Counted from the first letter of the stretch, positions 1 through 37,200 are shown. The stretch: DNA of 39,257 nucleotides from Candidatus Omnitrophota bacterium (GCA_043803685.1 JAZDJU010000080.1:1-39257), one strand, 5' to 3'. Translations and numbers: made by a program. Notes: a model not told the origin generated them from the letters alone.

Positions 1-1961
1 GCTTCACCTGTAAGGAGTTGGGGATCTCTGATTACATTTCCCTCTCCGTCGACGCCGAACATTATTTTCTTTCCATCAGGTTGATTCATGTCATAGATCC
101 TGACAAGTGTCATTTCTGTGCCAGCTGGCACTATTTGGTCATAATTGAGAAGCCCGAGATCCTCAGGAAGCAAATCGAACGCCTTCGTTACCACGCCTCC
201 GGGATTTTTGGATAGAGCCTCAAAAGCTTTGGCGACCCGCTCCTGAGCTTCAATCTGTTCGGGAGATTCATTCCCTAAAGCTTTCATAACCTCAAGAGTC
301 ACTCTATAAGTAATGGCTTCCTGGATCAGGACCGGCACATTTTCCCCCAAGAGGATATGCATGATCTCATGCGCAATCTTGATCGCGAGCCACTTAGCCC
401 TCTCGCCCGACGGGATCTCCTGGTAGGCACCTTGATCGACGATCACCGTGTTCAGTCCGATAAACGCCATCGCAAAAGATTTTGGCCCGGATCTCATAGC
501 TTTGTACTTTTCAGGATCAATCCCGGAAAGGAAAACAACCTTCACCCGATACGCTTCTTCGGGAAGGATCTGCTTTTCCACAAGGAGATCGATCGCGCCC
601 TTCACCACCGCCGTCTCTTTTTCAGAGAAGCTGATGGAATCCCTGAGATCTTTTTCAGTCACTCCTTTGAGTAGCCCCTGACTTTGCACGGCCTCCCACA
701 ATTGAGGAAAGTCGAATTGCACCTGCTGCGAGCGGGCGCTTGAAGAAGCGCTGAAAACTTTCAGAGCCGCATCCTGAAACTTCGCTCGGGGACTCGCGCT
801 CGAACGATCCTTTTTCACCGTATCCGCGATCTTCCGAACCGCATCCTGCATTGCGTTGCGAGCTTCGCTCTCAGAAAGACCGTTCAACGTAGTTTCCATG
901 GCCCTAGCAAGATCCATCGCTCTTGTATCCGCAGGATCTTTGAGCCCAGCCTCATAAAAACCCAACCCAACCAGAAAAAGTTCGGCATACGTTTGCTGTA
1001 GGGACTTTGGCGCCGAGGGATCCATGGATGCGACATAACGTTCCCATAACATTCCCTTGGGCTCATAAATGCCCCGAGGCATTGTCCCGTCAGCGATGAT
1101 TTCCCTGTTTCCAGAATGATCCATTCCTCGCAGGTGAATGACCGGGCGGGACGGATCTTCAGCTGTCAGGCTCCGGATCTGTCCGGCTAGCGCCTCGTCA
1201 CGGATCTTCATCCTCTCATCGCCCCATCGAGTGAACTGCTCGAAGGCACTCATGGCCTTATCAAGACTCCCCTCGCCCAACGCCTCAAAGAACTGTCCGT
1301 AGAAGAGATGGCTGAGCCAGTAGCACAAGGAAGATTCAAAGTCAGGGGCTTCAAATACAACGCCGGGCACATTCGCCGCCGCAAGCGCTTTCAATTCGGC
1401 CCCTCGGAATGTAGCCGCAGGACCGCGCCCCTGGGTTTCGCGAATCAGCTTTTTGGGATCATTAACACCATAGGTCTGAAATCCCTTCCGGGAGGCATAG
1501 AACTTATGCGCCTCTTCGTCGATCCTGGCGCGGATCTCCGGATCCCCTCGATAAAGATCCAGCAACCGGCCCACTCTTGCAAGATCGTCTTTCTCCGGGA
1601 CCTTCCCGGAAAGAAAGGACACCCGACCGCCCTGGAGATCGCCCAAAAGCTTGTTCAGATAATCCGCCCAACCGGTTTCCAGGATGGCCAGGGCATTCGG
1701 CTTGCCGTTCGCTAAACGAGGCGCTTTCATCACGGCCTCGTTGATCAGTGATATCACTTCACGATTCAGGTTTTCAACACCATCGTGCATGACAAATCCC
1801 AGATAGAGAGGTATCGTTCCTGCGCTTGCCGCAACCGGCGCCACAACTGGCGTGGAAACCTGCTGCACCATACCCGCACGCAGATCTCCCGTGAATAGAA
1901 CCGATAACGATAAAAAGAGTGTCAACATCCCAGTCGCAACGATCCGCGAAATAGACATTCC
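1..1961 (-). other. Giant protein module: internal Sec-type signal, TraB/Tiki-like domain, HExxH zincin
   Basis: GMSISRIVATGMLTLFLSLSVLFTGDLRA; VMHD, ILETG, VFEAP, IRDEAL, LRGMDH (about 1090-1810); KIAHEIMH...IQEAIT (HEIMH at 357-371). Confidence 0.6.
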
Positions 1962-4900
1962 CCGCACCTCGGAGCGTTTTTCAGGGACTTCCGATCGAGG
2001 CGCTTGTTCGGATGGGGTTTCAGAGAGTTTATCCTTGAGTTCAGCAACCTTCGCTTTAGCATATTCAACGTACTTATCTAACAAATAATTTGTTTCGGCC
2101 GCCTCTATAAACTTTTCGAACTGGGCGAGAGCCTCCCTGATTTCTCCCGCGGAATTCAAGAGATTACCCAGCCTAAAATAGGGCATAGGGGCCCAGGGCT
2201 TCAATTGACTTGCTTTTTCATAACTCGCCCTGGATTTCGCATAACTCACGTGGGCCGTCGGATAACTCCCCAGGGTTTTGCCATATTTGCCCTTCAATAA
2301 GTAAGCATCACCAAGACCCATATAATCCGTAAAAACGGCAGGTGACATCTCATCCTCGGCATATCCAGGATTCAAACGAATCGCGGCTTCATATAGTTTA
2401 ATGGCATCATCCAAACGAGAGGGGACCGTCATTAACTTATCTCCCAGATTGATGTAAGCATCATGATTCTTGGGATTCAGAGCGATTTGCTGTCTATAGA
2501 GCATTTCCATACGCGCCAAATCTTTGGGAAACACTATCCCCGTGACCACCGCATAATTCCAAAGAAAGAGTTGTATCGCCTCCTGAAACGGTATCACTCT
2601 GATAGCCTTACGAGTGTCCAGCACGACCCCCTCAGGCGGGATCTCACCCCTCTCTAGCTTCGGCCGCCGCTCGTCACTGGAAACAATGCTCGCGTCACGA
2701 TTCTCTGAGGAGGGATCAATCCAACGATATGTTCCGTCTGATAACTCCACCACATTAAAAGCATGTCCTATAAACAACCTATCGCCGGGATAACTCGCGA
2801 CCCAATTTTGAATTCCAAGGTCTTCGAGGTACTTCCCGGCAAAAATGCTTCGGAATACGCAACTCATTTCGCCGCCAGAACGCCAGACCGGCCCAGGAGC
2901 AGCTTCCAAAGCGCCTCTCTCCGGCTTACTCGTATCCACCCACCCGGGAAGCGCTAGAATGGGATCCAGAATTTTCCTGATCGCATCAAGCTCCGCCTGC
3001 ACAACTTGGGGTGAATCGTCACCGTACTTCTGCTTGGCTTCAGCGATCGATTTTTTCAAGCCCGGCACGTTGATCTTCCATCCAAGATAATCTGCAAGGA
3101 GCTTCTGAGTGTCCTTCACGCCTTTAAAATAGGTCGCATACTCAAGCTCGACGAGAATCGTCTGGATCACCAGATCGGTCAGCTTACGCGGGAGATCCAG
3201 CGCCCTGATACTTTTTTCGGCATCCCCTTTCCGGCCAAAGATCTCTTCGAACAATTGGCGTTCCTCTCCACTCAGTCCAAGACGGCTGTAGAACTCCTCG
3301 TTCATTCCCTGCCGCAACGTTTGCTCCACTCCGTTCCCTAACGCGTCGACCGCAGATCCCGCGAGCATGGCCCCCACCCCGGAAAAGGCACTGATCAGGG
3401 ATTGCTGTTCGGGACTGATCTCTCCTCCCCGAGACTTCGCCAGTTGAGTCATGTGATCCGCCATCCCAATGAGCTGCTTCGCTACCTTGGGGAGAAGCAC
3501 ACCCTCACGAACACCGTTGGGAAGCCCTTGAATGACTTTAAGAAGATTGAGAGCCTCTTGGAGCGATAAATTTTCGGGAAGCTGGAAATGATAAACAGCA
3601 CCCTCGCCTTTGCCGGTCACGCTCGGTTTCAAATAGTTTTGGGGCGGGTTCTTCACAAATTTCAGCTCAACACCCCCGGTAAGATTAAACCACGACAAAA
3701 TATCCTTCGTATCGCTATCGAAGCTGATCCCAAACCGGGACAGCACATCTTTCAACGGTAATGTCATCACATCCTGGACAATGGCGTTCTCCAACACGCC
3801 TCCTTGCTGAACCAGCGTCGTTGCAAAACGCGTTGGAACTTCCAGCGTCGCTGCCCACGAAGCCGGCCCATCCAACACCGCAACCCCCGCAGCAGCACCT
3901 AACAATTTCAGAAATGACCTGCGAGACAAGACTGGATTTGTTTTAGCCACATCCGCCGCAGCTGAAATCACCCCATCTCCCCGCATCTCGGAGCGATTTT
4001 GCGATTCACCTTGAGTCGTTTCGATTGAGCTCTCGGGTTTCTGAAGATTGGGCCATAAACTAGGATCTTCAGCGATTTTCAATTCCTCTTGAATCTCTTT
4101 GATGGAGATCCAGGCCGCCCGAACTTCACCCGACAATCCAGGATAATCATGGGCGAGTGACAAAACCTTTTGAAACTGTGCGAGCGCACCTTCAAGATTC
4201 CCGCTATTTTTTAAAATGCCTCCAAGCACTCGAAATTGTCGCAAGCCACCAGGATCCAAGGCGATCAACTTATCAATTTCCGGGATTGCGTCCTCATACT
4301 TTTCAGTTGCAATTAAAGCATCCACAAGGCGAGACCGTGCAATTAAAAGTTTTGGATCCAATGCGATCGCTTGTCTATACGCATCAATAGCCTCTCCAAA
4401 CTTATCCACCCTAGCATATCGTCCACCCTGATCGAAATAGAACTTCGCAGATACAGGATCAGGAGGTTTCTCGCTTCGCATCTCTTCGATGATTTTTGTC
4501 CCCTTAAGAACCGCATCAAAATTGTGACGAAAACTCTCCTTGATCGTGGGCTTAAAAGGAAGAATCCGAGCCGAATCCACGCCAGAGGAATCTCTGAGAT
4601 TTATCAAACGGATCCCAATTTCCGGGATTTCTTTAATACCTAAGTGAGCGTTGAGAATGCTGTAAGCTTTAGGACGCGATGGCTCCACCCATATAAACCT
4701 TCCGTCTGACAATTGGACTAAAAGCAGTATGTGGTTTGCCTTTTCGATAGAACCCGCATAAAACTCGGGTAAGACGCTCCACAGTTTGATCCCAATTTGT
4801 TCCATCTCCTCCCCGCCAATAGCAACTCGCCCTAAACAATTCAGTCTATTGGTAAGTGCCATCCAAGAGGGAGAGGCTTCCACAACTATCGTGGCTTCTT

Positions 4901-7900
4901 CCGTATCCTTGTAGACCCAACCGGGAAGCTTAACGAGCACCTCCACAATTTTTTTGATCGCGTTAAGTTCTACTTCTGACGCCTTTTCTGCTCCCTTCTT
5001 TCTGGCATCCTCGATCGCTTTTTTCAAGGCAGGAATATCGACACCCTTCAAATGTTCTCCGTCGAAATATTCTTTATAGCGCATCAGACCCTGAAAATAC
5101 GCCACCGCTTCAAACTCACTCCGGACTTGATTCACAGCTAGGCGAAGGGCCCTATCCCAAAGCCCGAGCTCGGATATTGCCACGCTCGAAGCACTTTCAC
5201 CAAAATACTGCTTGAATTTGTACCGCTCTTGATTGTAAAGGCCCAAGGCCTTGAATACTTGTCTATCCATCTCCTCCTGCAAGGGCATGGCCCGGATCTC
5301 TTCCAGCGTTGGAAGCACATCTGTCTGGACCGTGGTCAGTAAACTTGTCCCGATCCCGTAAAATCCGTTGATCATCGCAGCTTGTTCAGCCGTAAGTGCC
5401 TGTGTCATCGCCAACTGAGCCATCAGGACCGCCGTAGATTTGAACGTCTCAGCAACCTGCGAAAGGAACACATTGGGGTTGCTACTATGAGGCAGCTTTT
5501 GCAACACCCCAATGAGTTTCAAAGCTTCGCTGACCGTTAAGTCTTCCGGCAACGCGTAATGGTAAACAGCATCACGGCCTTCTCCCTCCATGCTCGCCGG
5601 CTTGTAAAAATCTTTCGCCGGTTCGAGTTTCTCGCGTGGAACGAACTCCACCGTAAAATCCCCACCCGCTAACTTGAGCCACGCCAGATCCACCGGTTCG
5701 CCCAACTTGACGGCCTTACCATCGCCTGCGAAACTTTGCCGCTCCGCTGCTGTCCCGAAAAGAGGCGTACTCATGACCTTAGCCGACAGGGAATTCGCCT
5801 GCACTTGCGCTAAACTCTCCGGCGAGAGCGTTGCGAGCGGCTCCGTCGCGTTCACCTGCCCCCCTCCGCCAGACAATGCCAACATAACCGTGATCAACAA
5901 AACCGTTAGAGACTTTTTAAGATCCTTCCATCCCCGCATCTCCGAGCGCTTGGCCGCTTTTGCTTTTTCGGCCGCGGCGACAGTATCTGCCTTGGCAGCT
6001 GCGGCAATATCCTTTTCGTTTCGCGTATTGAGCCCCTCAAAATGATTTCCGAGGTGCGGCATGAGCTCTTCCATTTTCAGGATTGGAAGCTTAAGAATAA
6101 GGGTGTCAAAAGAACTTTCGCCAGAGAACTTCTCTGTGAAAATGCTCAGCGCATTCCAGATTTTAAAAGTAACCGGATCTGTGACAAAGACCGAGTTCCT
6201 TTCTTTGACGACCAAATACGCCACGGAAGGCTTGCCCGATTTCAACGTGGGATCCATCTTTTCCCCTTGCGGAGGGAATGGTTTCCCGGAAGCAAGCACC
6301 GTCAATTGAAACAATTCTGTCAGACCCGCATCTTCAAGTTCTCGAAATTCCTTTTCGGAGCGTAAGGATAATAACTTTTGATAAACCCTCCGTTGCATAT
6401 GGTCTGAAAAAGCGGCGCTTTTCTCCTTCCCCATCAGACCCGCCATGAGGGCATAGCCTGCACGAACTTTTGTATCACGGAATAACAGCCCGTATTTAGC
6501 AACGCCGGGTTCATTCAAAATAACCTCGCCCTTCTGCCGGTAGATCTCTACCGCAGCCTCGTAATCCCCCCCCGCTGCTTCGACCTCCCTCCGGATATCC
6601 TGAGCGTGTTCCAAAACCTTCCCCATAAAATCAATATCCTCAGGGCTCAGATCCCGCTCCTGCTCCACCAATGCAAGAGGATCGAGACCGTGAGAAGCCA
6701 ACACGGTGATCACCCCCTCAATATCAATGGGCCCGGGCGTCGAAACGGGTGAATGCAAGTCCGCGCTAAATCCCACATAATCCTCTATGGGACCAAGGTT
6801 TTCATTGAGATGGAGTTCCCGTAGATACCCGATCACCGTCTCTCGATGCTCTGGATATTTCCGAGCGAGAGCTTTCACCCTTTGAGCGATCGTGTCCGCC
6901 GAGACCACGGGATCTTCCCCGCTCAGGTTGTAGTGCGCCACATCCAGCACGATCCCGAGATTTTTGAGCGCTCCCGGATCCTGCTCCTTCACGAGCTCGA
7001 AAATATCTTCGAACGCATCCATGAACCCAGCCGATTTCGTGTAATTCTTCTTCCCCGGCGTCTTGTCATGGTAATTTTCAAGATTGATCTTGAGGTCCGG
7101 AGCTGCCTGGCTGGCGTAGAGCACCAACTCGGCATAAGCCTTTTTCGCCTCCGGGCTGAGCGTCATCAAATGAACAACGATGCCGGCCGCTCCGATCTCC
7201 CCCGCGAACCGGATCTGTTCTTTCATGAACTCCGGATTATCCGCCGCGTCCTCAAATAAAAACTGCGCGCCGACCGCCGGCCCCACAATGGAACTATGAA
7301 CTGTCAATTTGATCCCCGTCTTTTCAAGGAGATCCTTAATAGCGTCTTTATATTCAGGCGAGTATTCGCCTGGAAGTCGCCGGGCACTAACCGAACCAGG
7401 TGCAAACCCAGCAGCATACGGTAAATTGTCGAAGGACACTTCAACGTGGGTCAAGCCGCGGTTGTAAGCCTCACGAATCGCTGAAAGGATGTCTCCCTCG
7501 AGATTAAAAAACGCAGAGGCGCCCGCCTCAATGGTCTTAGTGCCTTCCTTACGATCTAGTCGCTGAGCTCCCGGCACATTTCCTGCAACATATTCTGTAA
7601 CGCGCGATTGGAATTTTCCGGCTAATTCCTCCGGCTTCGACGCGGCCTTTAAAGATTCGTAGGTCGTGGCAAGCTTGAAAAGACAGTACGGTTTCCCAAG
7701 CGTCTCGGCCCCCGCTTCTCCGAGGCGATCAAGCGCCCCAACCACCGCCTTCATGGTCCCCTCTTGCAGCTTGTAGGTTCGTGGAGTCCCGTCAGGGCCC
7801 CTGACCCGCAATCCTGCGATCATCGCCTCCGCATCGCGAACCGCCTGATCCCCCCTCACTTCCGAGCGTTTGGGATCAGCATTGAACTTAGGCTCCGCAG

Positions 7901-10900
7901 TCACTGCGTCGGGCAGGGTCACTAGCAGAATCGCATCCGGGACCTCGTTTACCTCAAAATAGACTTCCGGTCCGTCCTTTCCGGGTCTTGTTTTCTGGAC
8001 GGGAACATAAACGCGGCCTGCTAATTGCGTACGACTCAATGGACTCCATATGACCTCGGGAATCGGACGGCCGAAAGCCTTGGAGGAACTTTCGATCGCG
8101 GCTATGTCCCCTGGATTGATGCCTCCCTCGTCCTCAGGATGAGAATGATAGCTGAAGAGATAATTACCGTAACGAGCGAACACCTTTGGAAGCCGCTGCG
8201 CGAGAACGGCTGACTCCAAAAATTCGCCTTGCTGATTTATCACCAACTGAACATCTTCACGCCTGTTGCGAAGCATGAGGGTTTCACCCGTCTTCCCCAG
8301 CGTCACAGCATGAGAAGATGTTTCCAACGATTCAAGGGCTTCCTCGAACGATCCTCTCAGCCGGACCCCCGTCTTTTCAAGGATCAGCTCTTCAATGTTC
8401 CGCTCAACCGTCCGCCCGCCTTGATCCACAAGCGCCTTGACGGACGAATGGTCTCCATTCCGAAGCACCACGGGAAAGGACTCTTCGCTTTGGCCTTTGA
8501 TCGCAATAACAATATGGGAATGATCAAACAGGATCTCTGCCGTGGCACTCGCCAGGGCCGTTTCACGAGAATCCTCCAACGCAAATTCCATCTGATCGGG
8601 AATAATTGTCAATAGGACGGAAACCCCTTTCGGAAGTGTTCCATTCCGGTGGCGCGTGCCCACATCGATAACCATCGCGTCATAGGCGGCCCGAAGATCT
8701 TTCGCTCCCGGGACCAAAGACTCTAATGTTCTAATATTTTGCTCACTTTTAGGATGAGAAATTCTGTCGTTCGCATCTAAATAATCCAGAGGGTATTTTT
8801 GCGAACGGAAAGCACTCCATAAAAGCCCTGCGAGGCCGCTTATGGCTCCAACGAATAGAGACACACCCCAGAGGACCACATTCTCCCAGTTCGAAAATAG
8901 ATCCGTCCTCGCTAAAAACTCCGCAATTAAAAATGAAGCAACCGCCCCTCCCGAAATGGCGCATGCAGCCACCACTCCCCCCCAATACCGATTGATCCAT
9001 TTCTCAACAGCCTCCTGACGATCAAAAAACTTCCGCGCCGCAGGGGACACCCCTGCTAGCACCGGCAAAGAAATACTCGCATCGACAGGTTCAAATTTCT
9101 CCAGCAACTCCTTATCCCTCACCTCCGAGCGCCCATCCGCCGGCGTCGTGGCGGGGACTGCGCTGGGTTGTGTAGTAACTTCACTTGGCGTGGCAGGTGA
9201 AACCTGAGCGGCGGGTTCTCCCCTCTTTTCGGAGCGGACTTTCTTTTGCACCGGAAAACCCGACTCGTCCACAATCCCCTTCGCTACAGCAAAAGATTCG
9301 GCAAAATCTTCTTCGGGCGCCATTTCTGGCGAGTACCATCCATCCCCGGTCTCTTTCCCTGACGCTATATTCTGGCCGTGGGCGGTCACTCTTTCACGAG
9401 CCGACCATGTTTCTCTTTGTTCTTCCGATAATTTTTTCTGCCACACATGGTGACCCGCTTCGTGCAATACGATATGTTCGAATGCGCCGGGATCAAACGC
9501 AAAATCATCCACGCTTGCCAGAGCCATAGTATCGTTGTCTAAATACGGTCCACCGTCACCCAAACGCATCCCGGATACAAGTCCGGCCGCGCGTTGATCA
9601 CGCACAAACCGAATATCCTTGACTCCGAGGGACCTCAAAACGTTTTTGACGGTTTCCGAAAGACCACGGATCCTCGAATAAGGCATCAACGGATCGACCC
9701 AAAACCCGTCGATCAGTTCGTATCCGGCATTTCGATACGCCTCTGCTCGTTTTGCCCGTTGCCTGTCCGCAGTCAACTCGTGGCTTGCGTTCAACAATTC
9801 CCTAGCCAACTGCTGGTTCCGCGCTGCTTCCGAAGAAACCTTTTGCCCGTTTCGAAACCTTAACGCCTCTTCTTCACTACGAACCCATGTTTTTTTGTCT
9901 TCGGACAGCCGGTACAAATGATCTTCGAATTCGTCCTGAGTTATAATTTTAAAGGCTTCCGCGCGTCCCAAAGAATCTCCGGCCTCGAACCTTCTCCGAA
10001 TGTCAGCCTCCTTTTCACTGGCAATATCCAGTGCGGTCCGCGCCTCCGAGCGCTTGAGCGCCGGCGTTGCGGCGGGGTCCATCCCTGTTCCCGGAGTACT
10101 AGGGACCGACCTTGCCTGTTGGGCCTGACTTATCATCTCGCTCAAAGCTTTCTCGTATAGCACACGGTAAGCAAGAAAGGACATGGCCTGGGCAGCCCCG
10201 AGCCCTATCTCAGGTTTAGCGATGCGCTTTCCCTCGGCCTGGATTTCCTTCAGTTCCTCATCGCTAAGAGTAATTTCACGCTTGGCTTGATCAGGAACCT
10301 TTTGCGGATTCTCGACACCTTCCCAGGGAAAATACGGGTAGCGCCTTACACGTTTTAGGTTGGGATCGACTACGTAGGGATCTAATACATCGAACGTATT
10401 CGTTGATGATTTCTCATTCGTACCGAAAAGTCGAAATCCGTCAGTGTCGGTTAAAAGATGGATGACAGGCTTCACACCTTTCGACAGATCAAAGCTACTG
10501 TAGTTGGATGTAGAAATAACAGTCCCCTGCAACCTCTTAAGAAATTCTTCCACCGGCATTGCCAGATCTGAATCGAGGCCGGAAGCTTTTTTTCCTCGAA
10601 AAACAAAGTAGAAGTAACTTTTGACAGGCCAAGGCGGTTGGCCATGAAAGCCCATCACGGGAAGCTCATTGACTCCGATCCGCCGGACCTCATTTTCAAG
10701 CTCCGCAATGTCGCTCTCCAGCGTCGCCAAACGCGACTCGGATCGCTTACCCACCGTCCTAGCTGGAGTTTCAGTGCTCGGGACGCCAAGCGTTGTGGTA
10801 ATTCGCCCGCCCGCGGACGAATTGGGTGCGGCAGATGTTGGAAGATTATTGGTTTGGGATACTGGGCCTGTGATGGGCGTTTTGGCCGCAAGCTTGTTCA

Positions 10901-13172
10901 TGTCAGCCAGCATCGCCGCAGCAACGGCTGAGGGTTCTTGGCCCAGATTCGTGGCAACTTGATTCACGATCGGAGCGATCTGATCCCTAGCGGCATCAGC
11001 GCCGATAGGTTTTATCTCTCCCTTGTCAGTCTTCTGCTTGATGAGTTCTCCCTGCACAGCCAACCCTTGCGCCAATATGGGACTTACCTGCCCGGCCGGT
11101 GCCGGACTACCCGCCAAGTCTGTTAAAACATCTGTGATCTGATCGGTCGTAGCACCCACTTTCCCAATAGCCTCGAGCGCTTCGGCTTCCTGGAGACGGA
11201 TGACGCGATAAATCTTCCGGCTGTTCTTTTCCCCGATCGGTGTCAGAGCGATCTGGATCCCCGCATTTTTGGCATAATCAGACTGGTTAAAGATCCCGAT
11301 AGCCCCATCCACCGTCCCATAATCACCGGCACGTCCGATCGCCCGCAGGACCGGCATCAGATTTCTAAGAACGTCTTGTCCTCCCAACTGTTCGCCTTGC
11401 GCCCTAAATGATTCGAGACGCGACACGGCTTCCAGGTAAGAAAGCTCGAAGGTGCTAGCTTTGTTCTGGAGCATCACACTACGATAAAGATTCTCGTCGG
11501 ATTTTTCGCTGAGGCGCGGGGTGAGAACACCGTAGCTGATCTCATGTTCCCTGAGAAGCTCCGTAATGCCGTCGGTGTGGAAACCTCCCGTGATCACGAC
11601 CGCTTTACTGAGAGATTCCCGGCGCATGACGGTGTCGATCTTTTCGTAAAAGACGTCCTCTCTTTTCCTCGCCGCTTCGTAGAACCGGTACGCCGCTTCC
11701 TGCACCTCAGTCACGGCCTTCTTGAAATTGGGATTGACCGGCTTTGTCTCGAAATTGGAAAGCGGCAGGTTAAGCTGCTGACTCACTAAGATTCCGATCT
11801 TCTTGAGCTCCCCGACCATGGCCTCCATCGAAAGGACTTCTTCCCGGCCAAGCACCTCCTGCCAATCCTTGCGGGTCAATTCGAGATTCAGAAGCTTTCG
11901 AACCAGCTCTTCGTCCCTGTAGAGCGCGAGAAGAGCTTTCTGCTGCTCTGTCGCGGCCAGTTTGTCGAGGATCCGCGTGAACAGGCTCCGGATCTCCGTA
12001 AAAAGACTCTTCGGATCCAGCTCGCTTTTCAGGATGAGATAGCCCGCATAAAGACTGAAGTGAGGATAATCGGAAAATCGAAATCCCTTCGGCCCCGCCT
12101 CCATAACGAGCTGTTCCATGAGATCTCGCGGCTCGATCGGACCCGCCTGGCCCGCCACACCCGTGCGCATCACGCTCAGCCGCTGATCCTTGAAATTCTC
12201 GATCGCGGTCACGAGCTTCGGGGAAACTTTTTTCTCCTTCAGGAACTTGATCAGGGTATCCCGTTCCGAAAGCCCCTTGGCCGTATCGAGTTCTTTTTCC
12301 ATGGCCTGGAGGACCAAAAGCCTCGTGGTCTGCGGCCATTCGACCTGCGCGAGCAAACTTTCAAGATCGATTCCTAGCACTCGTTTCGCTTCCGCGGTGA
12401 GATTGCGAATATAGGGCATGAACTCCCGGTGACCTTTTTCGAATTTCTTCCATTCCCCGAGTAGTTTGATCAGATCGCCCGGGAACACTTTGGAGGCAAG
12501 ACCGGAGAGCCGCCCTTCGAAACCGTCGAGGTACTTTTTTACCGTTGCCTCCGAACCAAACACTTTCTTGAGCGCTTCGTAGTTCTCGCGATAGAGCTCC
12601 GCGTTCTCGATGCCGTGAGCCCTGACGGCGGAGCCGTCAGACTGAAGACTGGAGACTGGAGACTGGAGACTAAAATCCTTCTTGCTGCTGTCTGTGGTCT
12701 GCGGTCTATAGTCTTTATCTGCTTCTAGAAGATAAAGTTCCGCTCCCGTGAGCTCTCCCTGTTCTGCGAGGAATTGCGCGAGCTTCAGGTTCCGCTCCTT
12801 GTCCGGGAACATCTTGAGATAATCAGGATTGAGGTCCTCAGAAGCGCCTTCCACGAAGAGCGTCTTGATGCCATAGGATTTGTCGAGATACTGCAAAAGC
12901 TGTTTGATCTTCTGCTGAGCTCCGTAGTTGGCGTGCGCGTTCTGGATATGCAGGATGAATTTCGGATCGGCGTGCGGCGGCGCCTCGTATAAGCCATCCA
13001 GCGTCGCCAGTTCGTCGGGGATATCGATCTGGAGAAAACCGGGGGTTTCGCGGACCGCCATCATCGCGATCCCGGCTCCGGGATCCGCGAAGGTGACCTG
13101 GCTGGACAGAAAGCAGGCCAACGTCAAGAGACTCGTCGCGCGAATGAGTTTTTGTTTTACTTTCGAAAACAC
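1..13172 (-). CDS. Giant secreted multidomain protein (>=4390 aa, 3' end outside the window)
   Basis: GTG at 13172 with SD AAAGGGGGA at 13181-13189. N-terminus MFSKVKQKLIRATSLLTLACFLSSQVTFA is a Sec signal. Hand translation found no in-frame stop down to position 1, and the ORF track lists no closed minus ORF in this frame. Catalytic motifs occur throughout. Confidence 0.95.
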   Translation of the reverse strand, partial: MFSKVKQKLIRATSLLTLACFLSSQVTFADPGAGIAMMAVRETPGFLQIDIPDELATLDGLYEAPPHADPKFILHIQNAHANYGAQQKIKQLLQYLDKSYGIKTLFVEGASEDLNPDYLKMFPDKERNLKLAQFLAEQGELTGAELYLLEADKDYRPQTTDSSKKDFSLQSPVSSLQSDGSAVRAHGIENAELYRENYEALKKVFGSEATVKKYLDGFEGRLSGLASKVFPGDLIKLLGEWKKFEKGHREFMPYIRNLTAEAKRVLGIDLESLLAQVEWPQTTRLLVLQAMEKELDTAKGLSERDTLIKFLKEKKVSPKLVTAIENFKDQRLSVMRTGVAGQAGPIEPRDLMEQLVMEAGPKGFRFSDYPHFSLYAGYLILKSELDPKSLFTEIRSLFTRILDKLAATEQQKALLALYRDEELVRKLLNLELTRKDWQEVLGREEVLSMEAMVGELKKIGILVSQQLNLPLSNFETKPVNPNFKKAVTEVQEAAYRFYEAARKREDVFYEKIDTVMRRESLSKAVVITGGFHTDGITELLREHEISYGVLTPRLSEKSDENLYRSVMLQNKASTFELSYLEAVSRLESFRAQGEQLGGQDVLRNLMPVLRAIGRAGDYGTVDGAIGIFNQSDYAKNAGIQIALTPIGEKNSRKIYRVIRLQEAEALEAIGKVGATTDQITDVLTDLAGSPAPAGQVSPILAQGLAVQGELIKQKTDKGEIKPIGADAARDQIAPIVNQVATNLGQEPSAVAAAMLADMNKLAAKTPITGPVSQTNNLPTSAAPNSSAGGRITTTLGVPSTETPARTVGKRSESRLATLESDIAELENEVRRIGVNELPVMGFHGQPPWPVKSYFYFVFRGKKASGLDSDLAMPVEEFLKRLQGTVISTSNYSSFDLSKGVKPVIHLLTDTDGFRLFGTNEKSSTNTFDVLDPYVVDPNLKRVRRYPYFPWEGVENPQKVPDQAKREITLSDEELKEIQAEGKRIAKPEIGLGAAQAMSFLAYRVLYEKALSEMISQAQQARSVPSTPGTGMDPAATPALKRSEARTALDIASEKEADIRRRFEAGDSLGRAEAFKIITQDEFEDHLYRLSEDKKTWVRSEEEALRFRNGQKVSSEAARNQQLARELLNASHELTADRQRAKRAEAYRNAGYELIDGFWVDPLMPYSRIRGLSETVKNVLRSLGVKDIRFVRDQRAAGLVSGMRLGDGGPYLDNDTMALASVDDFAFDPGAFEHIVLHEAGHHVWQKKLSEEQRETWSARERVTAHGQNIASGKETGDGWYSPEMAPEEDFAESFAVAKGIVDESGFPVQKKVRSEKRGEPAAQVSPATPSEVTTQPSAVPATTPADGRSEVRDKELLEKFEPVDASISLPVLAGVSPAARKFFDRQEAVEKWINRYWGGVVAACAISGGAVASFLIAEFLARTDLFSNWENVVLWGVSLFVGAISGLAGLLWSAFRSQKYPLDYLDANDRISHPKSEQNIRTLESLVPGAKDLRAAYDAMVIDVGTRHRNGTLPKGVSVLLTIIPDQMEFALEDSRETALASATAEILFDHSHIVIAIKGQSEESFPVVLRNGDHSSVKALVDQGGRTVERNIEELILEKTGVRLRGSFEEALESLETSSHAVTLGKTGETLMLRNRREDVQLVINQQGEFLESAVLAQRLPKVFARYGNYLFSYHSHPEDEGGINPGDIAAIESSSKAFGRPIPEVIWSPLSRTQLAGRVYVPVQKTRPGKDGPEVYFEVNEVPDAILLVTLPDAVTAEPKFNADPKRSEVRGDQAVRDAEAMIAGLRVRGPDGTPRTYKLQEGTMKAVVGALDRLGEAGAETLGKPYCLFKLATTYESLKAASKPEELAGKFQSRVTEYVAGNVPGAQRLDRKEGTKTIEAGASAFFNLEGDILSAIREAYNRGLTHVEVSFDNLPYAAGFAPGSVSARRLPGEYSPEYKDAIKDLLEKTGIKLTVHSSIVGPAVGAQFLFEDAADNPEFMKEQIRFAGEIGAAGIVVHLMTLSPEAKKAYAELVLYASQAAPDLKINLENYHDKTPGKKNYTKSAGFMDAFEDIFELVKEQDPGALKNLGIVLDVAHYNLSGEDPVVSADTIAQRVKALARKYPEHRETVIGYLRELHLNENLGPIEDYVGFSADLHSPVSTPGPIDIEGVITVLASHGLDPLALVEQERDLSPEDIDFMGKVLEHAQDIRREVEAAGGDYEAAVEIYRQKGEVILNEPGVAKYGLLFRDTKVRAGYALMAGLMGKEKSAAFSDHMQRRVYQKLLSLRSEKEFRELEDAGLTELFQLTVLASGKPFPPQGEKMDPTLKSGKPSVAYLVVKERNSVFVTDPVTFKIWNALSIFTEKFSGESSFDTLILKLPILKMEELMPHLGNHFEGLNTRNEKDIAAAAKADTVAAAEKAKAAKRSEMRGWKDLKKSLTVLLITVMLALSGGGGQVNATEPLATLSPESLAQVQANSLSAKVMSTPLFGTAAERQSFAGDGKAVKLGEPVDLAWLKLAGGDFTVEFVPREKLEPAKDFYKPASMEGEGRDAVYHYALPEDLTVSEALKLIGVLQKLPHSSNPNVFLSQVAETFKSTAVLMAQLAMTQALTAEQAAMINGFYGIGTSLLTTVQTDVLPTLEEIRAMPLQEEMDRQVFKALGLYNQERYKFKQYFGESASSVAISELGLWDRALRLAVNQVRSEFEAVAYFQGLMRYKEYFDGEHLKGVDIPALKKAIEDARKKGAEKASEVELNAIKKIVEVLVKLPGWVYKDTEEATIVVEASPSWMALTNRLNCLGRVAIGGEEMEQIGIKLWSVLPEFYAGSIEKANHILLLVQLSDGRFIWVEPSRPKAYSILNAHLGIKEIPEIGIRLINLRDSSGVDSARILPFKPTIKESFRHNFDAVLKGTKIIEEMRSEKPPDPVSAKFYFDQGGRYARVDKFGEAIDAYRQAIALDPKLLIARSRLVDALIATEKYEDAIPEIDKLIALDPGGLRQFRVLGGILKNSGNLEGALAQFQKVLSLAHDYPGLSGEVRAAWISIKEIQEELKIAEDPSLWPNLQKPESSIETTQGESQNRSEMRGDGVISAAADVAKTNPVLSRRSFLKLLGAAAGVAVLDGPASWAATLEVPTRFATTLVQQGGVLENAIVQDVMTLPLKDVLSRFGISFDSDTKDILSWFNLTGGVELKFVKNPPQNYLKPSVTGKGEGAVYHFQLPENLSLQEALNLLKVIQGLPNGVREGVLLPKVAKQLIGMADHMTQLAKSRGGEISPEQQSLISAFSGVGAMLAGSAVDALGNGVEQTLRQGMNEEFYSRLGLSGEERQLFEEIFGRKGDAEKSIRALDLPRKLTDLVIQTILVELEYATYFKGVKDTQKLLADYLGWKINVPGLKKSIAEAKQKYGDDSPQVVQAELDAIRKILDPILALPGWVDTSKPERGALEAAPGPVWRSGGEMSCVFRSIFAGKYLEDLGIQNWVASYPGDRLFIGHAFNVVELSDGTYRWIDPSSENRDASIVSSDERRPKLERGEIPPEGVVLDTRKAIRVIPFQEAIQLFLWNYAVVTGIVFPKDLARMEMLYRQQIALNPKNHDAYINLGDKLMTVPSRLDDAIKLYEAAIRLNPGYAEDEMSPAVFTDYMGLGDAYLLKGKYGKTLGSYPTAHVSYAKSRASYEKASQLKPWAPMPYFRLGNLLNSAGEIREALAQFEKFIEAAETNYLLDKYVEYAKAKVAELKDKLSETPSEQAPRSEVPEKRSEVRGMSISRIVATGMLTLFLSLSVLFTGDLRAGMVQQVSTPVVAPVAASAGTIPLYLGFVMHDGVENLNREVISLINEAVMKAPRLANGKPNALAILETGWADYLNKLLGDLQGGRVSFLSGKVPEKDDLARVGRLLDLYRGDPEIRARIDEEAHKFYASRKGFQTYGVNDPKKLIRETQGRGPAATFRGAELKALAAANVPGVVFEAPDFESSLCYWLSHLFYGQFFEALGEGSLDKAMSAFEQFTRWGDERMKIRDEALAGQIRSLTAEDPSRPVIHLRGMDHSGNREIIADGTMPRGIYEPKGMLWERYVASMDPSAPKSLQQTYAELFLVGLGFYEAGLKDPADTRAMDLARAMETTLNGLSESEARNAMQDAVRKIADTVKKDRSSASPRAKFQDAALKVFSASSSARSQQVQFDFPQLWEAVQSQGLLKGVTEKDLRDSISFSEKETAVVKGAIDLLVEKQILPEEAYRVKVVFLSGIDPEKYKAMRSGPKSFAMAFIGLNTVIVDQGAYQEIPSGERAKWLAIKIAHEIMHILLGENVPVLIQEAITYRVTLEVMKALGNESPEQIEAQERVAKAFEALSKNPGGVVTKAFDLLPEDLGLLNYDQIVPAGTEMTLVRIYDMNQPDGKKIMFGVDGEGNVIRDPQLLTGE
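1977..3980 (-). other. Giant protein module: internal Tat-type signal, transglutaminase-like Cys-His-Asp domain, TPRs
   Basis: SRRSFLK (3906-3926) followed by LLGAAAGVAVLDGPASWA; MSCVFR (Cys 2859-2861); GHAFNVVELSDGTYRWIDPS (His 2763-2765, Asp 2715-2717); TPRs at about 2100-2500. Confidence 0.8.
3996..5933 (-). other. Giant protein module: internal Sec-type signal, transglutaminase-like Cys-His-Glu domain, TPRs
   Basis: GWKDLKKSLTVLLITVMLALSGGGGQVNA; NCLGR (Cys 4836-4838); NHILLLVQLSDGRFIWVEPS (His 4731-4733, Glu 4683-4685); TPRs such as AIDAYRQAIALDP at about 4150-4440. Confidence 0.75.
6660..7530 (-). other. Giant protein module: AP endonuclease 2 / xylose isomerase-like TIM barrel (endonuclease IV-like)
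   Basis: LTVH, IVVH, INLEN, LDVAH, ELHLNEN, ADLH, GPID and LVE appear in the order of the endonuclease IV metal ligands. Confidence 0.85.
7869..9116 (-). other. Giant protein module: two TM helices plus JAB/MPN domain
   Basis: Hydrophobic hairpin at 8808-8987. FSYHSHPEDEGGINPGD (HSH...D at 8106-8147) is HxHx7(N)x2D, with an upstream candidate Glu in RREDVQLVI. Confidence 0.65.
9237..10037 (-). other. Giant protein module: zincin metallopeptidase
   Basis: IVLHEAGHHVW (HEAGH at 9450-9464) with downstream EDFAESF (9291-9311), the third-ligand pattern of anthrax lethal factor-like zincins. Confidence 0.8.
11460..12960 (-). other. Giant protein: N-terminal TraB/Tiki (EreA/ChaN-like fold) domain
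   Basis: Ordered motifs HIQNAH (12933-12950), LFVEG (VEG at 12846-12854), GIEN (12603-12614), FY..A..RE, and AVVITGGFHTDGITELLREHEISY (GGFH at 11577-11588). This matches the H...E...E...R...GxxH pattern of the TraB/Tiki family; no HMM was run. Confidence 0.55.
12639..12714. repeat. Heptamer tandem/inverted repeat inside the giant CDS
   Basis: Five AGACTGG-like units, a spacer, then four inverted GTCTnnn units; the reading frame is kept. Confidence 0.85.
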
Positions 13173-13244
13173 TATATTTATCCCCCTTTATCACTCTTTT
13201 TTTAAAGTGATAAAACCGCTACATGTTGCTATACCTCTAATTAA

Positions 13245-13273
13245 AATGTAGCTTGGAGATTAGACATTGTCAA
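13245..13273 (-). promoter_or_regulatory. Sigma70-type promoter of the giant gene
   Basis: Minus strand TTGACA (13273-13268), 17 nt, TACATT (13250-13245), in an AT-rich intergenic region about 70 nt upstream of the start. Confidence 0.6.
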
Positions 13274-13404
13274 TGCAGTAACTAATTTTACTAAATATAA
13301 CTTAACTCATTGCATTTGAATGATTTACGTCATTAATTTATACCGGATAAGCTAGACGCCATGAAACTATGCTCTCATTCTCATTTTTGACTCGTCCAAC
13401 CCCC

Positions 13405-13462
13405 TTTACACACCCGGGGTGTTAAAAGATACGTAACCCTCTTTACACCCCGGGTGTGTAAA
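13405..13462. repeat. REP-like inverted pair
   Basis: Perfect 18-bp inverted repeat TTTACACACCCGGGGTGT (13405-13422) / ACACCCCGGGTGTGTAAA (13445-13462); each arm is itself nearly palindromic. Confidence 0.75.
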
Positions 13463-13528
13463 TGGGTTGAAGGGTGAAAACGGAGCGGCTCTTGAAGTTG
13501 AAATTGTAATTTCGGATACTGCTCGTTG

Positions 13529-13537
13529 TGATATAAT
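13529..13537 (+). promoter_or_regulatory. Extended -10 promoter of lpxA (probably leaderless)
   Basis: TGaTATAAT ends 8 nt before the ATG at 13546; no SD is present. Confidence 0.6.
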
Positions 13538-13545
13538 TCCGATCT

Positions 13546-14400
13546 ATGTCTGAAATCCATTCCAGTGCCATCATCGGAAAGCAGGTCGAGATCGGGGTCA
13601 ATAACATCATTGGCCCGAACGTCATTCTTGAGGACGGTGTCAAGATCGGCTCCCACAACAAGATCATGGCCGGTGCTTATCTCGCTCGAGGGACCGAGAT
13701 CGGAAATTACAACGTCCTTCACATGAATGCCGTGATCGGTCATGAGCCCCAGGACCTCGCTTATCAGGGCGAGGCCACCTTCACCAGGATCGGCTCCAAG
13801 AACGTCATCCGGGAATTCGTCACGATCCACCGCGGCACCAAGGAAGGCACCGCGACCGTGATCGGCGACGGAAATTTCCTCATGGCTTATTGCCACATCG
13901 CGCACAATTGCCATCTCGGCAGCAACATCATCATGGTGAACCAGGCTTCGCTCACCGGCCACTGCGTGGTCGAGGACAAGGCGTTCCTTTCGGGCATGAC
14001 CGGTTTTCACCAATTCACGAGGATCGGCACACTCGCCATGGTGAGCGCTCTCACCGCGATCAATAAGGACATTCCCCCCTATGTGGTGTGCGGCGGACGT
14101 CCGGGTGTCGCTCAAGGGATCAATGTGGTGGGCATGAGACGCGCGGGGATCGGACCGCAGGTGCGCGCCGAGATCAAGGAAGCTTACAAATTGCTTTATC
14201 GTTCAGGATTGAATGTGAGCCAGGCCGTGGAAAAGATCCGGAATTCCCTCAAAAGCCCCGAAGTGATCCACATGGTCGAGTTCATCGAGGCCTCCAAACG
14301 CGGAATTTTGGATGGCTCCAGCGCGGCGGCTGACACGATCGGACACCGCAAAAACCGCGCGATTACTGCTGCAGAAGAACCTGAAGAAGAACTCGCCTAG
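13546..14400 (+). CDS. lpxA: Acyl-ACP--UDP-N-acetylglucosamine O-acyltransferase
   Basis: Hexapeptide repeats; IGHEPQDL, IREFVTIHRGT, HIAHNC, HQFTRIG and GINVVGMRR motifs. Confidence 0.93.
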   Translation: MSEIHSSAIIGKQVEIGVNNIIGPNVILEDGVKIGSHNKIMAGAYLARGTEIGNYNVLHMNAVIGHEPQDLAYQGEATFTRIGSKNVIREFVTIHRGTKEGTATVIGDGNFLMAYCHIAHNCHLGSNIIMVNQASLTGHCVVEDKAFLSGMTGFHQFTRIGTLAMVSALTAINKDIPPYVVCGGRPGVAQGINVVGMRRAGIGPQVRAEIKEAYKLLYRSGLNVSQAVEKIRNSLKSPEVIHMVEFIEASKRGILDGSSAAADTIGHRKNRAITAAEEPEEELA

Positions 14401-34248: not shown

Positions 34249-37200
34249 TCATCCGATCTTCACCTCGGCCACATGTTCGATCCGGTCGTCCACAAGCCGC
34301 AGGGTCTTTTCCTCCTGTACCACGCCATCCAAAGTCACGGAAGTCACGTGATCCGAAGGTCCTGAACGGATAAAAGTAATATGATGGAAGGTCTCCCGGT
34401 ACCGGTAATGAAGCTTCCAGGAAGACCATTCCGCGGGAAGACACGGCTCGAAATAGATCCGGTCCACTTTCAAGCGGATCCCGAGCAAATATTTCACGAT
34501 AAGCTGATACATCCAGGACGCGGACCCGGTGTACCAGGTCCATCCCCCGCGCCCGGCAAGACCCGGCGAGACGTAAACATCTCCGGCCATCACGAAAGGC
34601 TCCACTTTGTAAACGGCACATTTTTCCGCCGTATCGCCGTGATGAACAGGGTTGATCATAGAGAGCAACTCCCAAGCCCGCTTTTGATCCCCGATGACCG
34701 CAAAGGCGATCGCCGCCCAGACCGCTGCGTGCGTGTACTGTCCACCGTTCTCCCTGACGCCCGGGACATAGCCTTTGATGTATCCCGGATTCGGGAAAGC
34801 CTTGTTGAAAGGAGGATCAAATAATTTCACGAGCGAGTGCTTCCTGTCGACCAACTGCCGGTCGACCTGATCCATGGCCTTCCGAGCCCTTTCTTTTTGG
34901 ACCGCGCCTGAAATGACCGCCCAGGATTGCGGGATCGAATCGATACGGCATTCGGTATTCTGGGAAGACCCCAGCGGATCCCCGTTGTCGAAATAAGCCC
35001 GGCGATACCACTCGCCGTCCCAGCCGTGTTCTTCAATATTCTGGGCAAGCTTTCCGGCCTCCACGGTACAAAACTCCGAAAAGTCGGGATCCCCACGCTG
35101 AGCGGCCAAAACCGCCATCGCCTTCAGGACATCGTAAAGAAAAAAAGCAAGCCACACACTTTCGCCTTTTCCTTCGAACCCGACCAAATTCATCCCGTCG
35201 TTCCAGTCCCCGCTGCCCATGAGCGGAAGGCCGTGAGCGCCGAACTTCAACCCTCTTTTGACGCTCAAAACACAATGCTCGTAAAGCGTCCCAGCGCGAG
35301 CCGCGGCCCTAGGCTGATCATAATAAGATTCTTCGGTCGGCTTGACAAGCGGACCTTCCAGAAACCCGATTGTTTCATCCAGGATCCCCGTGTCGCCGAT
35401 CTTTTCGACATAAAGACATGTCACGAACGGAAGCCATAGATAATCATCGGAACACTGGCTCCGGACCCCGCGGCCAGAGGGCGGATGCCACCAGTGCTGA
35501 ACATCTCCCTCGACAAATTGATGCCCCGCGAAGGTCAGCAACTGTTCCCGGACCATTTCCGGTTTTGAATGGATCAGCGCCATCACGTCTTGAAGCTGAT
35601 CCCGGAAACCGAACGCCCCACCGGATTGATAAAAACCGCTTCGCCCCAAAAGGCGGCAGCTGATGATCTGATACTGTAGCCATCCGTTCACGAGAAAATC
35701 GATCGAGGTGTCGGGCGTTTCCACATACACCACACCCAGGGTCTGCTTCCAGTATTCCCACACCCTTTCAAGTTCCTGACGCGCCGCGTCGGTCCCGTTA
35801 AAACGCCGGACCAGATTCCGCGCGTCCTCCACCGTTTGCCCGGAACCGAAAGTAAAGAGGACTTCTTTTTCCTCATGGTCCGCCAGCTCAAATTTCACCT
35901 GAGTCGCCACGCAGGGATCGATCCCCGCGCCCACTTTGCCGGAAAGCCTGTCCCGGCGCATCACCGAAGGCGAGGCCATGGTTCCGTTCCTGCCAATAAA
36001 TTCGATCCGGTCCCCGGTGACGAAACGCGTCGGCTCGCTAACATCCAAAAAGACGGTCCTATCCGGGAATTCTTTGTTGTAAGGGTTGCGGGCAAGCAAA
36101 GCGCCACTTTTGGGATCGATCTCGGTCACGATATGCGTGTGATATTTATCCCGGAAGGTCCCCATGACCAGTTCAAAATAAGCCGTCGCGGAGAGACACC
36201 TCCTCCGTCCGGAAATATTCCGGATCTTCAGCTTTGAGAATTTGACGCGGTCTTCCAGCGAAACGAATACCGTTAATTCGGACACGATTCCGTTCTCGGC
36301 GTGTTCGAAGATACTGTACCCGAACCCGTGGCGCGCGGTGTAACGCGTCTTCCCCGTCGCGGGAAGCGGGGTCGGAGACCAGAATCTCCCGCTCTCGTCA
36401 TCACGGATGTAAAGGGCCTCGCCCGAAGCGTCCGTGACGGCATCGTTCTTCCAAGGCGTGAGACGGAATTCGTGCGCGTTCTCACTCCAAGTATAGGCGC
36501 CGCCGCTTTCGGAGATCACCGTACCGAAGTGACGATTCGCCAACACATTGACCCACGGCGCGGGAGTGGTCTTCACGCTTGAGGTCGTTATCACGTATTC
36601 CCGTCCGTCCCCGGTAAAACCTCCCACACCGTTGTAATAAACAAGGTCGGAACGCTCCCCGGGTCCTTGATCTTCATCCCCCGGATCATCTTTCCGGGTC
36701 GGAACGAACGGCAAAAAGTTCACCTTGGGCTGGGTCACATCCTCGAGTTGCTCGGCCAACGTTCCTCCACGGTCGGAGATGATGATCCGTGCGACCGTCT
36801 GCATAAGGATCTTGTCTTCGTCGGACATCTGATCGGCGCGTCTTAAAAAGATCCCACCTTTCTGGCCCGCCCTTTCCTCGGCGTCGGCAATAATCAACCC
36901 GCTGATCCGCTCCCCCAGGCTGTCGCGGTAAATAGAACTGTCTTCATTCCAGATGACCAGATCGACCGCCAATCCTTTCATGCGCCAGTAGGCATGGGCC
37001 TGCATCATCTGCACGACCAGCTCGATATTGTCCTGGTTCTCGATACGGACGAGCACGATCGGGAGATCGCCGGAAATACTGTACCCCCAAAGATCCGGCT
37101 GGCCCCGGTTATTCCGCCGCAAAACACTCGCGCTCGCTCTCCACGACGGATTCGCGTACAAAATGGCACTGGCCAAACGACCGTAGAGCTGGGCGGAGGC

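Follow-up and report, generated by a model that had tools for sequence, protein, structure and literature searches.

A 39,257-nucleotide stretch of DNA from Candidatus Omnitrophota bacterium (GCA_043803685.1 JAZDJU010000080.1:1-39257), hereafter the window, carries on its minus strand a giant open reading frame (ORF, 3..13172) whose product is punctuated by the pentapeptide Arg-Ser-Glu-x-Arg (RSExR). With moderate confidence, we interpret this pentapeptide as a peptide-level processing site of a bacterial polyprotein, most likely one that is read by a protease. The ORF starts with GTG at 13172, encodes 4390 amino acids and meets no stop before the low end of the window, its 3' end being cut off by the window edge. 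All eight RSExR copies lie on the minus strand within this single ORF: RSESR at residue 810 (10731..10745), the first delimiter, after the linker behind the N-terminal domain; RSEAR at 1041 (10038..10052); RSEKR at 1313 (9222..9236); RSEVR at 1348 (9117..9131) and at 1769 (7854..7868); RSEMR at 2409 (5934..5948) and at 3060 (3981..3995); and RSEVR at 3733 (1962..1976). From composition, 0.075 copies would be expected (Poisson P(>=8) = 2.4e-14), and the maximum reached in 20,000 shuffles of the ORF was two. Four further RSExR strings occur in the six frames of the window, all of them in plus-strand frames antisense to genes. A blind repeat search of the giant ORF returned the motif DNA as the top direct-repeat family.

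These figures bear out the eight copies and their positions as listed in an initial annotation of the same DNA, which had also correctly reported a Gly directly after five of the eight copies and a doubling of two boundaries. At the first of these, RSEKR (9222-9236) is followed by RSEVR (9117-9131) behind a 30-residue P/T/S-rich spacer; at the second, a degenerate RSEVP (1983..1997, minus strand) stands two residues (EK) ahead of the RSEVR at 1962-1976. The DNA consensus given there, CGCTCSGARnnGMGG, matches seven of the eight sites and nothing else in the window. The P/A/T/S- or A/K-rich linker that was said mostly to precede the motif is borne out at about half of the sites: the P/A/T/S/G/K content of the 25 upstream residues is at or above the 99th percentile at four of the eight and at or above the 91st at five. 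Two near-copies end in Pro instead of Arg, namely the RSEVP just mentioned and RSEKP (4464-4478, minus strand), which lies inside the sixth unit of the protein just before its TPR part; both could be delimiters in decay. In relatives, too, doubling is frequent, as in P0003 at 2011/2015 and 2562/2573.

The RSExR delimiter is a trait of a protein family and not a peculiarity of one gene. A length-matched search with the giant protein returned 27 other proteins of 2,856-7,591 amino acids whose sources, where given, are Omnitrophota or a related candidate division. Most of them match only the first 13-17% of the query, the remainder being unrelated, and the enzymes found within them include glucose-6-phosphate isomerase (PGI), phosphofructokinase, glutamate dehydrogenase and CMP kinase. 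RSExR copies number 5-24 in 16 of the 27, where about 0.1 would be expected. An exhaustive search that took the N-terminal 690 residues as query yielded 7058 representative clusters at E<=1e-3; all counts of representatives given here refer to the best 147 of these. They contain 462 RSExR in 349,452 residues (8.5 expected), with at least one copy in 96 and at least three in 56 of them. A blind scan for enriched gapped pentamers put RSE.R at the top for 15 of the 27 long homologs and, among the 147 representatives, for 47. A genome scan then gave 79 loci, several genomes having multiple paralogous ones, and all organism-named records among them are Omnitrophota metagenome-assembled genomes. The longest plus-strand ORFs of the 79 loci together with the window's ORF hold 245 RSExR in 169,785 residues, whereas all other ORFs at these loci and in the window hold 18 in 185,407 residues (3.8 expected), nearly all of them in ORFs of the same family.

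According to the initial annotation, the motif stands at all module boundaries. Its position at borders is supported by the comparisons that follow; the 'all' is partly circular, since the motif itself defines the modules, and several window units contain two or more domains that no motif separates. In the variable region, homology blocks (n=87) begin at most 30 residues after a motif in 58% of cases and finish at most 30 residues before one in 53%, against 14% each under random placement. Blocks that cross a motif numbered 27, where 56.5 were expected. Module-swap breakpoints mapped in relatives fall at or near a motif: P0005 and P0006, whose aligned parts show 98% identity, differ in content, the edges of their shared blocks lying 0-12 residues away from one, and in loci L032 and L045 the shared block stops at the last residue of the motif in both. 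Unit 2 of the window (226 residues, 10053..10730, minus strand) was found again as a differently placed unit of P0003 (residues 3164-3398), and so was the C-terminal part of unit 8 (P0003 residues 732-971). Only one of 15 Pfam domain envelopes holds a motif, and HD, DUF218 and TrmB-type domains are bracketed by motifs within 15-48 residues. The interval from motif to motif has a median of 255 residues (interquartile range 137-426); the first motif after the N-terminal domain lies at a median position of 668 and the last at a median of 303 residues before the C-terminus. In P0010, a unit that runs from motif to motif aligns with residues 3-547 of the 549-residue solved enzyme 3nbu_A, and a complete PGI is thus situated between two motifs.

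Information across the family is confined to the five core positions, with nearly uninformative flanks; a small residue precedes the motif, and x is filled at most sites by Val, Ala, Leu or Met. Other clades show other spellings in the same kind of place, namely RAEVR (14-16 copies per protein), A[AS]SLG, GAR[ML]A and RxEMR. The delimiter variant tracks the genome and not the lineage of the N-terminal domain. Genome CAZDVO01 has RSESR at 17 of 18 sites across three paralogs, the Ser at x being encoded by TCG, TCT, TCC and AGC, which speaks for selection at the level of the peptide. In genome DAOPYQ01, RAE[KR]R is used by two paralogs (L006 and L029). Such paralogs with a common spelling belong to different N-domain orthogroups: L006 is 60-68% identical to its group-A orthologs, which use RSE[VM]R, and 46% identical to L029. 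Among 49 ORFs from 33 genomes, the within-genome similarity of spelling was reached with shuffled genome labels in 10 of 5000 trials for x and in 20 of 5000 for position 2. Since the variant is uniform within a genome and changes by lineage, it behaves like a recognition site with a co-evolving reader that is shared per genome.

Three units of the window (6, 7 and 8) open with Sec- or Tat-type export signals right behind a motif. Two of these are hydrophobic Sec-type starts, the signal-peptide-like GWKDLKKSLTVLLITVMLALSGGGGQVNA of unit 6 (5847..5933, minus strand; hydrophobicity maximum 2.57) and the signal- or anchor-like GMSISRIVATGMLTLFLSLSVLF... of unit 8 (1869..1961, minus strand; maximum 2.15). 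The third, in unit 7, is a twin-arginine (Tat) signal (3873..3929, minus strand) located 18-36 residues past the motif at residue 3060, which scores 19.5 bits against TIGR01409, above the curated cut-off of 16.7, and matches PF10518 at E = 0.0011. A Tat signal functions solely at a free N-terminus, and since this one follows a motif, cutting is favoured. The same association was found in the family: a hydrophobic segment lies within 40 residues after the motif at 11.3% of 671 sites, compared with 2.1% upstream and 5.9% at random positions, and Tat-like strings follow 9 of the 671 sites versus 8 of 3340 random positions, an about sixfold enrichment. Units 6 (646 residues, 3996..5933) and 7 (668 residues, 1977..3980), both on the minus strand, are paralogs that align over their full length from the motif to their ends (28% identity, E = 3e-54), each consisting of a signal, a shared domain and TPR repeats. 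As far as can be told from sequence, one ORF of this family comprises several complete proteins, as seen with PGI, the Pfam-bracketed units and the Sec- or Tat-led units of the window.

We propose that the giant ORF would belong to a very large Omnitrophota family of cassette polyproteins, arranged in the order signal peptide, N-terminal domain of about 650 residues, variable train of units, and C-terminal domain of about 300 residues ending in Ser-Ala or Ala-Ala. Arg-Ser-Glu-x-Arg would be read as a peptide by a factor common to all paralogous polyproteins of one genome. This reader would most likely be an endopeptidase, which would act on the precursor in the cytoplasm and divide it into separate proteins; freed units with an N-terminal Sec or Tat signal would then be exported, while others would remain as cytoplasmic or membrane proteins. 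Units would enter, leave and move along with their delimiter, and the junctions would therefore be copies of one another.

In the window, unit 1 (11103..13172, minus strand) comprises a signal peptide and the conserved N-terminal domain (residues 1-690), the hallmark of the family. The C-terminus of the window's protein lies beyond the window edge, and the C-terminal domain was seen in the relatives P0003-P0176: in nearly all complete members, a weakly conserved domain of some 300 residues is followed by a final Ser-Ala or Ala-Ala, and the terminal Ala is invariant in an alignment of 27 short members. Minimal members (about 21, roughly 1000 residues each) consist of signal peptide, N-terminal domain and C-terminal domain, with 0-2 motifs. 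In the Protein Atlas, the N-terminal domain matches only Omnitrophota clusters, and the C-terminal domain of P0063 gave nothing usable.

Several observations weigh against the processing interpretation. No peptidase family of Pfam or NCBIfam matches the window's ORF and no cognate protease was identified; of the neighbouring genes checked at the window and at three related loci, most are housekeeping genes, a few lack a Pfam family, and none encodes a peptidase. Convergent substitutions are lacking in the N-terminal domains of paralogs with a common variant delimiter (one column each; control pairs 0-4), which makes a separate factor, one that acts in trans, the likelier reader. The N-terminal domain itself has no Pfam, NCBIfam or PDB sequence match, its structure model found no match at E<=0.001 in Foldseek searches of PDB and BFVD, and hhalign of the domain versus the E. 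coli TraB-family protein YbaP gave a probability of 0.1%. RSExR is absent from 7 of the 27 long homologs and from many representatives, for most of which no substitute was found, and of 116 aligned sites, 37 have it in the same column. Near-length searches for window units 5 and 7 returned no stand-alone homologs, a result that is possibly swamped by TPR repeats and common words; units have been shown to equal whole genes in the case of PGI and a few Pfam-bracketed ones, but not in that of the window's own units. The codon bias at the motif, described below, leaves scope for a nucleotide-level signal. The initial annotation had proposed a protease recognition site: a peptide-level site at unit borders has much independent evidence behind it, whereas cleavage itself, together with the cut position, the compartment and the protease, is what we infer from that evidence.

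An explanation without cutting would be that RSExR is a docking motif, each junction binding a common partner that organizes folding or membrane threading while the chain stays whole. Such docking would equally need a compact exposed peptide that co-evolves with a genome-shared reader; the partner might be a chaperone, a factor for secretion or insertion, or one of the two conserved terminal domains. It would also agree with the published view of single membrane-anchored chains: in the available part of bioRxiv 10.64898/2026.06.07.730766, 93.6% of 916 long proteins are credited with transmembrane helices or signal peptides. The giant protein is, moreover, poor in Cys as a whole, as though it had one fate: 6 of its 4390 residues are Cys (0.14%) versus 75 of 8083 (0.93%) in 18 neighbour genes (P about 1e-11), and the value across the whole family is about 0.1%. 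This scarcity is compatible with an extracytoplasmic or unfolded-transport fate. In an uncut chain, though, the Tat signal behind the motif would be deprived of the free N-terminus on which its function depends. Units 6 and 7 are both signal-led, and we infer that an uncut chain would put these paralogs on opposite sides of the membrane. Complete soluble enzymes such as PGI are located between motifs as well. We regard docking as unlikely.

As to the identity of the reader, the N-terminal domain itself could be the protease, possibly a distant TIKI/TraB-type hydrolase that would process both its own chain and its paralogs. It is the only domain present in every member, the first motif comes directly behind it, and its residues H75, H80, E108 and H532 are invariant or nearly so. 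A model built from 42 sequences (predicted local distance difference test score, pLDDT, 82.1; predicted template modelling score, pTM, 0.80) shows a small alpha/beta core interrupted by some 330 residues of helical insert. With regard to the 2His/2Glu catalytic set of the TIKI/TraB/erythromycin-esterase superfamily, the 28-residue spacing of H80 and E108 equals that of Bcr135 and RRSP as given in the available part of PMC6254334, a likeness in spacing alone. Solved members of that superfamily have a parallel beta-sheet core flanked by helices. Assignment to it received no support from Foldseek, from hhalign or from searches of PDB by sequence and by profile: the Foldseek matches listed include none of its members at a useful score, although the long helical insert may mask the small core, and the comparison with YbaP failed as stated above. 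The domain furthermore does not co-vary with the delimiter variants. It carries a Sec signal, whereas the units with Tat signals argue for cutting in the cytoplasm, and the minimal members possess the domain with hardly any RSExR and with no cargo. That the N-terminal domain is the reader is unlikely in our assessment, and we do not assign it to the TIKI/TraB family.

A third possibility is that the motif is primarily DNA, a recombination core of about 15 nucleotides (microhomology or the site of a site-specific recombinase) for in-frame shuffling of units, the peptide being a mere translation of it. The codons were therefore compared at the eight window sites and at 237 motif sites from the 79 related loci. 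In the window, seven of eight sites have CGC for the first Arg (background 14%, P = 9e-6), all eight have TCC or TCG for Ser (background 37.5%), and seven have CGG or AGG for the last Arg. At the 237 sites, CGY makes up 83% of the codons for the first Arg (background 41%), TCN 91% of those for Ser (background 65%) and AGG 32% of those for the last Arg (background 13%). The initial annotation had argued that synonymous codon variation points to selection on the peptide; variation is indeed present, all six Arg codons and both Ser codon families being in use at motif sites, but it is far less than chance would give, and this strong bias weakens the argument. Conserved Arg and Ser residues of the N-terminal domain show similar locking into one codon family, and much of the bias at the motif is thus explicable by the descent of junctions from common ancestors. 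Two window junctions share 40 nucleotides at 78% identity, which fits junctions that would be copies of one another under selection on the peptide.

For a role of the DNA speak the breaks at the motif in the content differences of near-identical proteins (P0005/P0006; L032/L045), the homologous units at different positions in different proteins, the bias towards CGY TCC together with the rank of the motif as top direct repeat and the 40 shared nucleotides, and the doubled delimiters, which resemble scars. Set against this, the sites of a single gene differ synonymously and draw on the two Ser codon families, different codons preserve the genome-specific x, and the alternative delimiters are defined as peptides. 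The shared DNA amounts to merely about 15-24 nucleotides at 75-100% identity. No recombinase gene stands beside the window's gene or the three annotated related loci, codon-family locking of a like kind is seen at conserved residues of the N-terminal domain, and selection for intact units would yield identical breakpoints. Integron- or shufflon-type cassettes have a conserved DNA core and a nearby recombinase; here, the core varies synonymously and no recombinase was found among the checked neighbours. The palindrome CTCSGAG, considered as a DNA site, occurs 8 times in the window versus 8.7 expected. We give this primarily nucleotide-level explanation little credence. Of the microhomology shuffling put forward in the initial annotation, the breakpoints at the motif and the copied look of the junctions stand, while the short shared stretches and their synonymous differences speak against it, and a role of DNA microhomology is possible as a secondary one at most.

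Very improbable is an action of the motif in translation, whether as a programmed pause that would give each unit time to fold, a 2A-like peptide-bond skip or initiation inside the ORF at the x codon. In its favour, 72 of the 237 sites have GTG or ATG at x, the last Arg shows the AGG excess given above, and strong anti-Shine-Dalgarno pairing (<=-8 kcal/mol) occurs at 18% of sites versus 10.6% in synonymous recodings. Yet the mean pairing energy does not differ from that of the recodings (-4.81 versus -4.58, P = 0.23), and about 35% of 669 sites have Ala, Ser or Thr at x, which hence is no start codon in general. Shine-Dalgarno-like pausing at the motif was rejected on the equal means. A peptide-bond skip of the 2A type is not known from bacteria. 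Internal promoters or terminators were likewise rejected, as promoter-like (8 versus 8.8 expected) and terminator-like sites (14 versus 16.0) in 1-13600 are at chance level, and no known RNA families were found inside the giant ORF.

Under the processing interpretation, the remaining units of the window's ORF would be further products of the chain. Unit 3 (267 residues, 9237..10037), unit 4 (416 residues, 7869..9116), unit 5 (635 residues, 5949..7853) and the incomplete unit 8 (653+ residues, 3..1961) all lie on the minus strand. Unit 5 contains a xylose-isomerase-like TIM barrel (PF01261, E = 1.8e-12). By eye, zinc-peptidase-like strings are visible in unit 3 (HEAGHH...EEDFAESFA) and unit 8 (HEIMH), and unit 4 has two hydrophobic segments close to its start, then HSHPEDEGGINPGD, which is JAMM-like in appearance. 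Pfam and NCBIfam lend no support to the peptidase-like strings of units 3, 4 and 8, and units 3 and 4 are also without a PDB sequence match. In units 6 and 7, the rare Cys residues align (NCLGR / SCVFR), as do His (ANHIL / IGHAF) and Asp (LSDG); read by eye and with no family match, this suggests a Cys-His-Asp peptidase or transglutaminase-like core before the TPR repeats. Upstream of the ORF start lies a promoter-like TTGACA-17-TACATT (13245..13273, minus strand), identified as a consensus match alone.

The database copy of the giant protein comes from a contig identical in extent to the window. The giant ORF resides among housekeeping genes: its neighbours in the window encode a ketoacyl synthase, an S1-domain protein, aromatic amino-acid enzymes, ScpA/ScpB and a class-I (Trp/Tyr-type) tRNA synthetase. 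The divergent upstream gene (13546-14400, plus strand) codes for a hexapeptide-repeat protein that is LpxA-like by eye, and an overlapping minus-strand ORF (13381-14115) without family match is probably spurious. A conserved neighbour gene was considered as the reader and rejected, for tblastn found no counterpart beside related loci and the neighbours at three loci are mostly housekeeping genes. At the high end of the window, a GH94 ORF of 1666 amino acids (34249-39249, minus strand) with supersandwich and catalytic domains runs to the window edge. Just past its stop, in the gap before a Band 7 gene pair, an nhaA-I RNA (RF03057; 34098-34149, minus strand) was matched with 44.7 bits against a gathering score of 37. 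At locus L004, a GH94 ORF (3-3371) is also upstream of the orthologous polyprotein gene, and the two genes may form a loose conserved linkage. In some genomes, two family genes are arranged in tandem on the same strand (loci L010, L056, L073 and L016). Paralog groups B and C occur in conserved housekeeping surroundings, with thrS-infC-rplT-pheST upstream in L024 and pheT in L029, which argues that the family genes are stable chromosomal residents and not island cargo.

Among known systems, viral polyproteins (potyvirus NIa-Pro, picornavirus 3C sites) are alike in that one ORF yields several proteins through a short junction peptide and in that the site consensus shifts between lineages along with its reader. 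They differ in that the gene described here is chromosomal and lies amid housekeeping genes, its highly variable cargo is shuffled between strains and its cleavage is predicted; no protease within the giant chain, in the style of viral polyproteins, was identified. In MARTX toxins (multifunctional autoprocessing repeats-in-toxin; see PMC6254334), conserved N- and C-terminal regions with glycine-rich RTX repeats flank strain-variable modules that are released by cuts in linkers, made by an internal cysteine protease domain. Here, in contrast, Pfam detects no RTX repeats (and has no match of any kind in unit 1), neither Pfam nor NCBIfam detects a cysteine protease domain in the 4390 residues, the C-terminal part lying beyond the window, and there is a defined Arg-Ser-Glu-x-Arg, a cargo of metabolic enzymes and units with Sec or Tat signals of their own. 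No sign of delivery into another cell, as in MARTX, was seen here. The furin/kexin site R-x-x-R, with Arg at P4 and P1, resembles RSExR in that two Arg frame a short precursor site; unlike it, RSExR has the spacing R-x-x-x-R with invariant Ser and Glu, and Pfam finds no subtilisin-type domain in the chain.

Closest are the giants already described from Omnitrophota (Archaeovorins, Dockerin type, 'multi-enzyme metabolic clusters'), which come from the same phylum and are long ORFs that tile unrelated domains; signal peptides and transmembrane helices are described for them in the available parts of two reports (bioRxiv 10.1101/2023.11.21.568195; 10.64898/2026.06.07.730766), the first of which suggests cleavage into products. 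Those parts name no cleavage points, whereas the family described here has a specific delimiter and a defining N-terminal domain. In the accessible text of West-Roberts et al. (bioRxiv 10.1101/2023.11.21.568195), cleavage of giant proteins is suggested and the cleavage points are stated to be unknown; that of Seymour et al. (PMC10066038) describes giant ORFs and leaves cleavage unmentioned. The report on 'multi-enzyme metabolic clusters' (bioRxiv 10.64898/2026.06.07.730766) suppresses internal signal-peptide calls as chunking artefacts, and its available text contains no cleav-, proteoly-, motif or polyprotein terms. Full-text literature searches for the motif strings or for Omnitrophota polyproteins and cleavage sites, which covered main texts, returned nothing relevant.

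Giant ORFs are a signature of Omnitrophota. A specific delimiter allows giant proteins to be split into units for structure prediction and annotation, and it offers a testable site for proteomics and reporter assays. Because the spelling of the site co-varies with the genome, it also provides a handle for finding the protease. The family would, besides, be a natural system of in-frame cassette exchange. More tentatively, and with somewhat less than even confidence, we suggest that Omnitrophota may keep a sizeable part of their proteome as 'protein operons', trains of complete proteins (central metabolic enzymes, exported proteins and membrane proteins among them) separated by a genome-specific pentapeptide, served by one dedicated protease and gained, lost and shuffled as in-frame cassettes along with their delimiter. 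If cleavage is borne out, this would be a cellular, chromosomal polyprotein strategy at large scale, to judge by the 7058 representative clusters of the N-terminal domain. The giant ORFs of the phylum would then be precursors and not giant machines, and the delimiter would supply their missing cut-site code.

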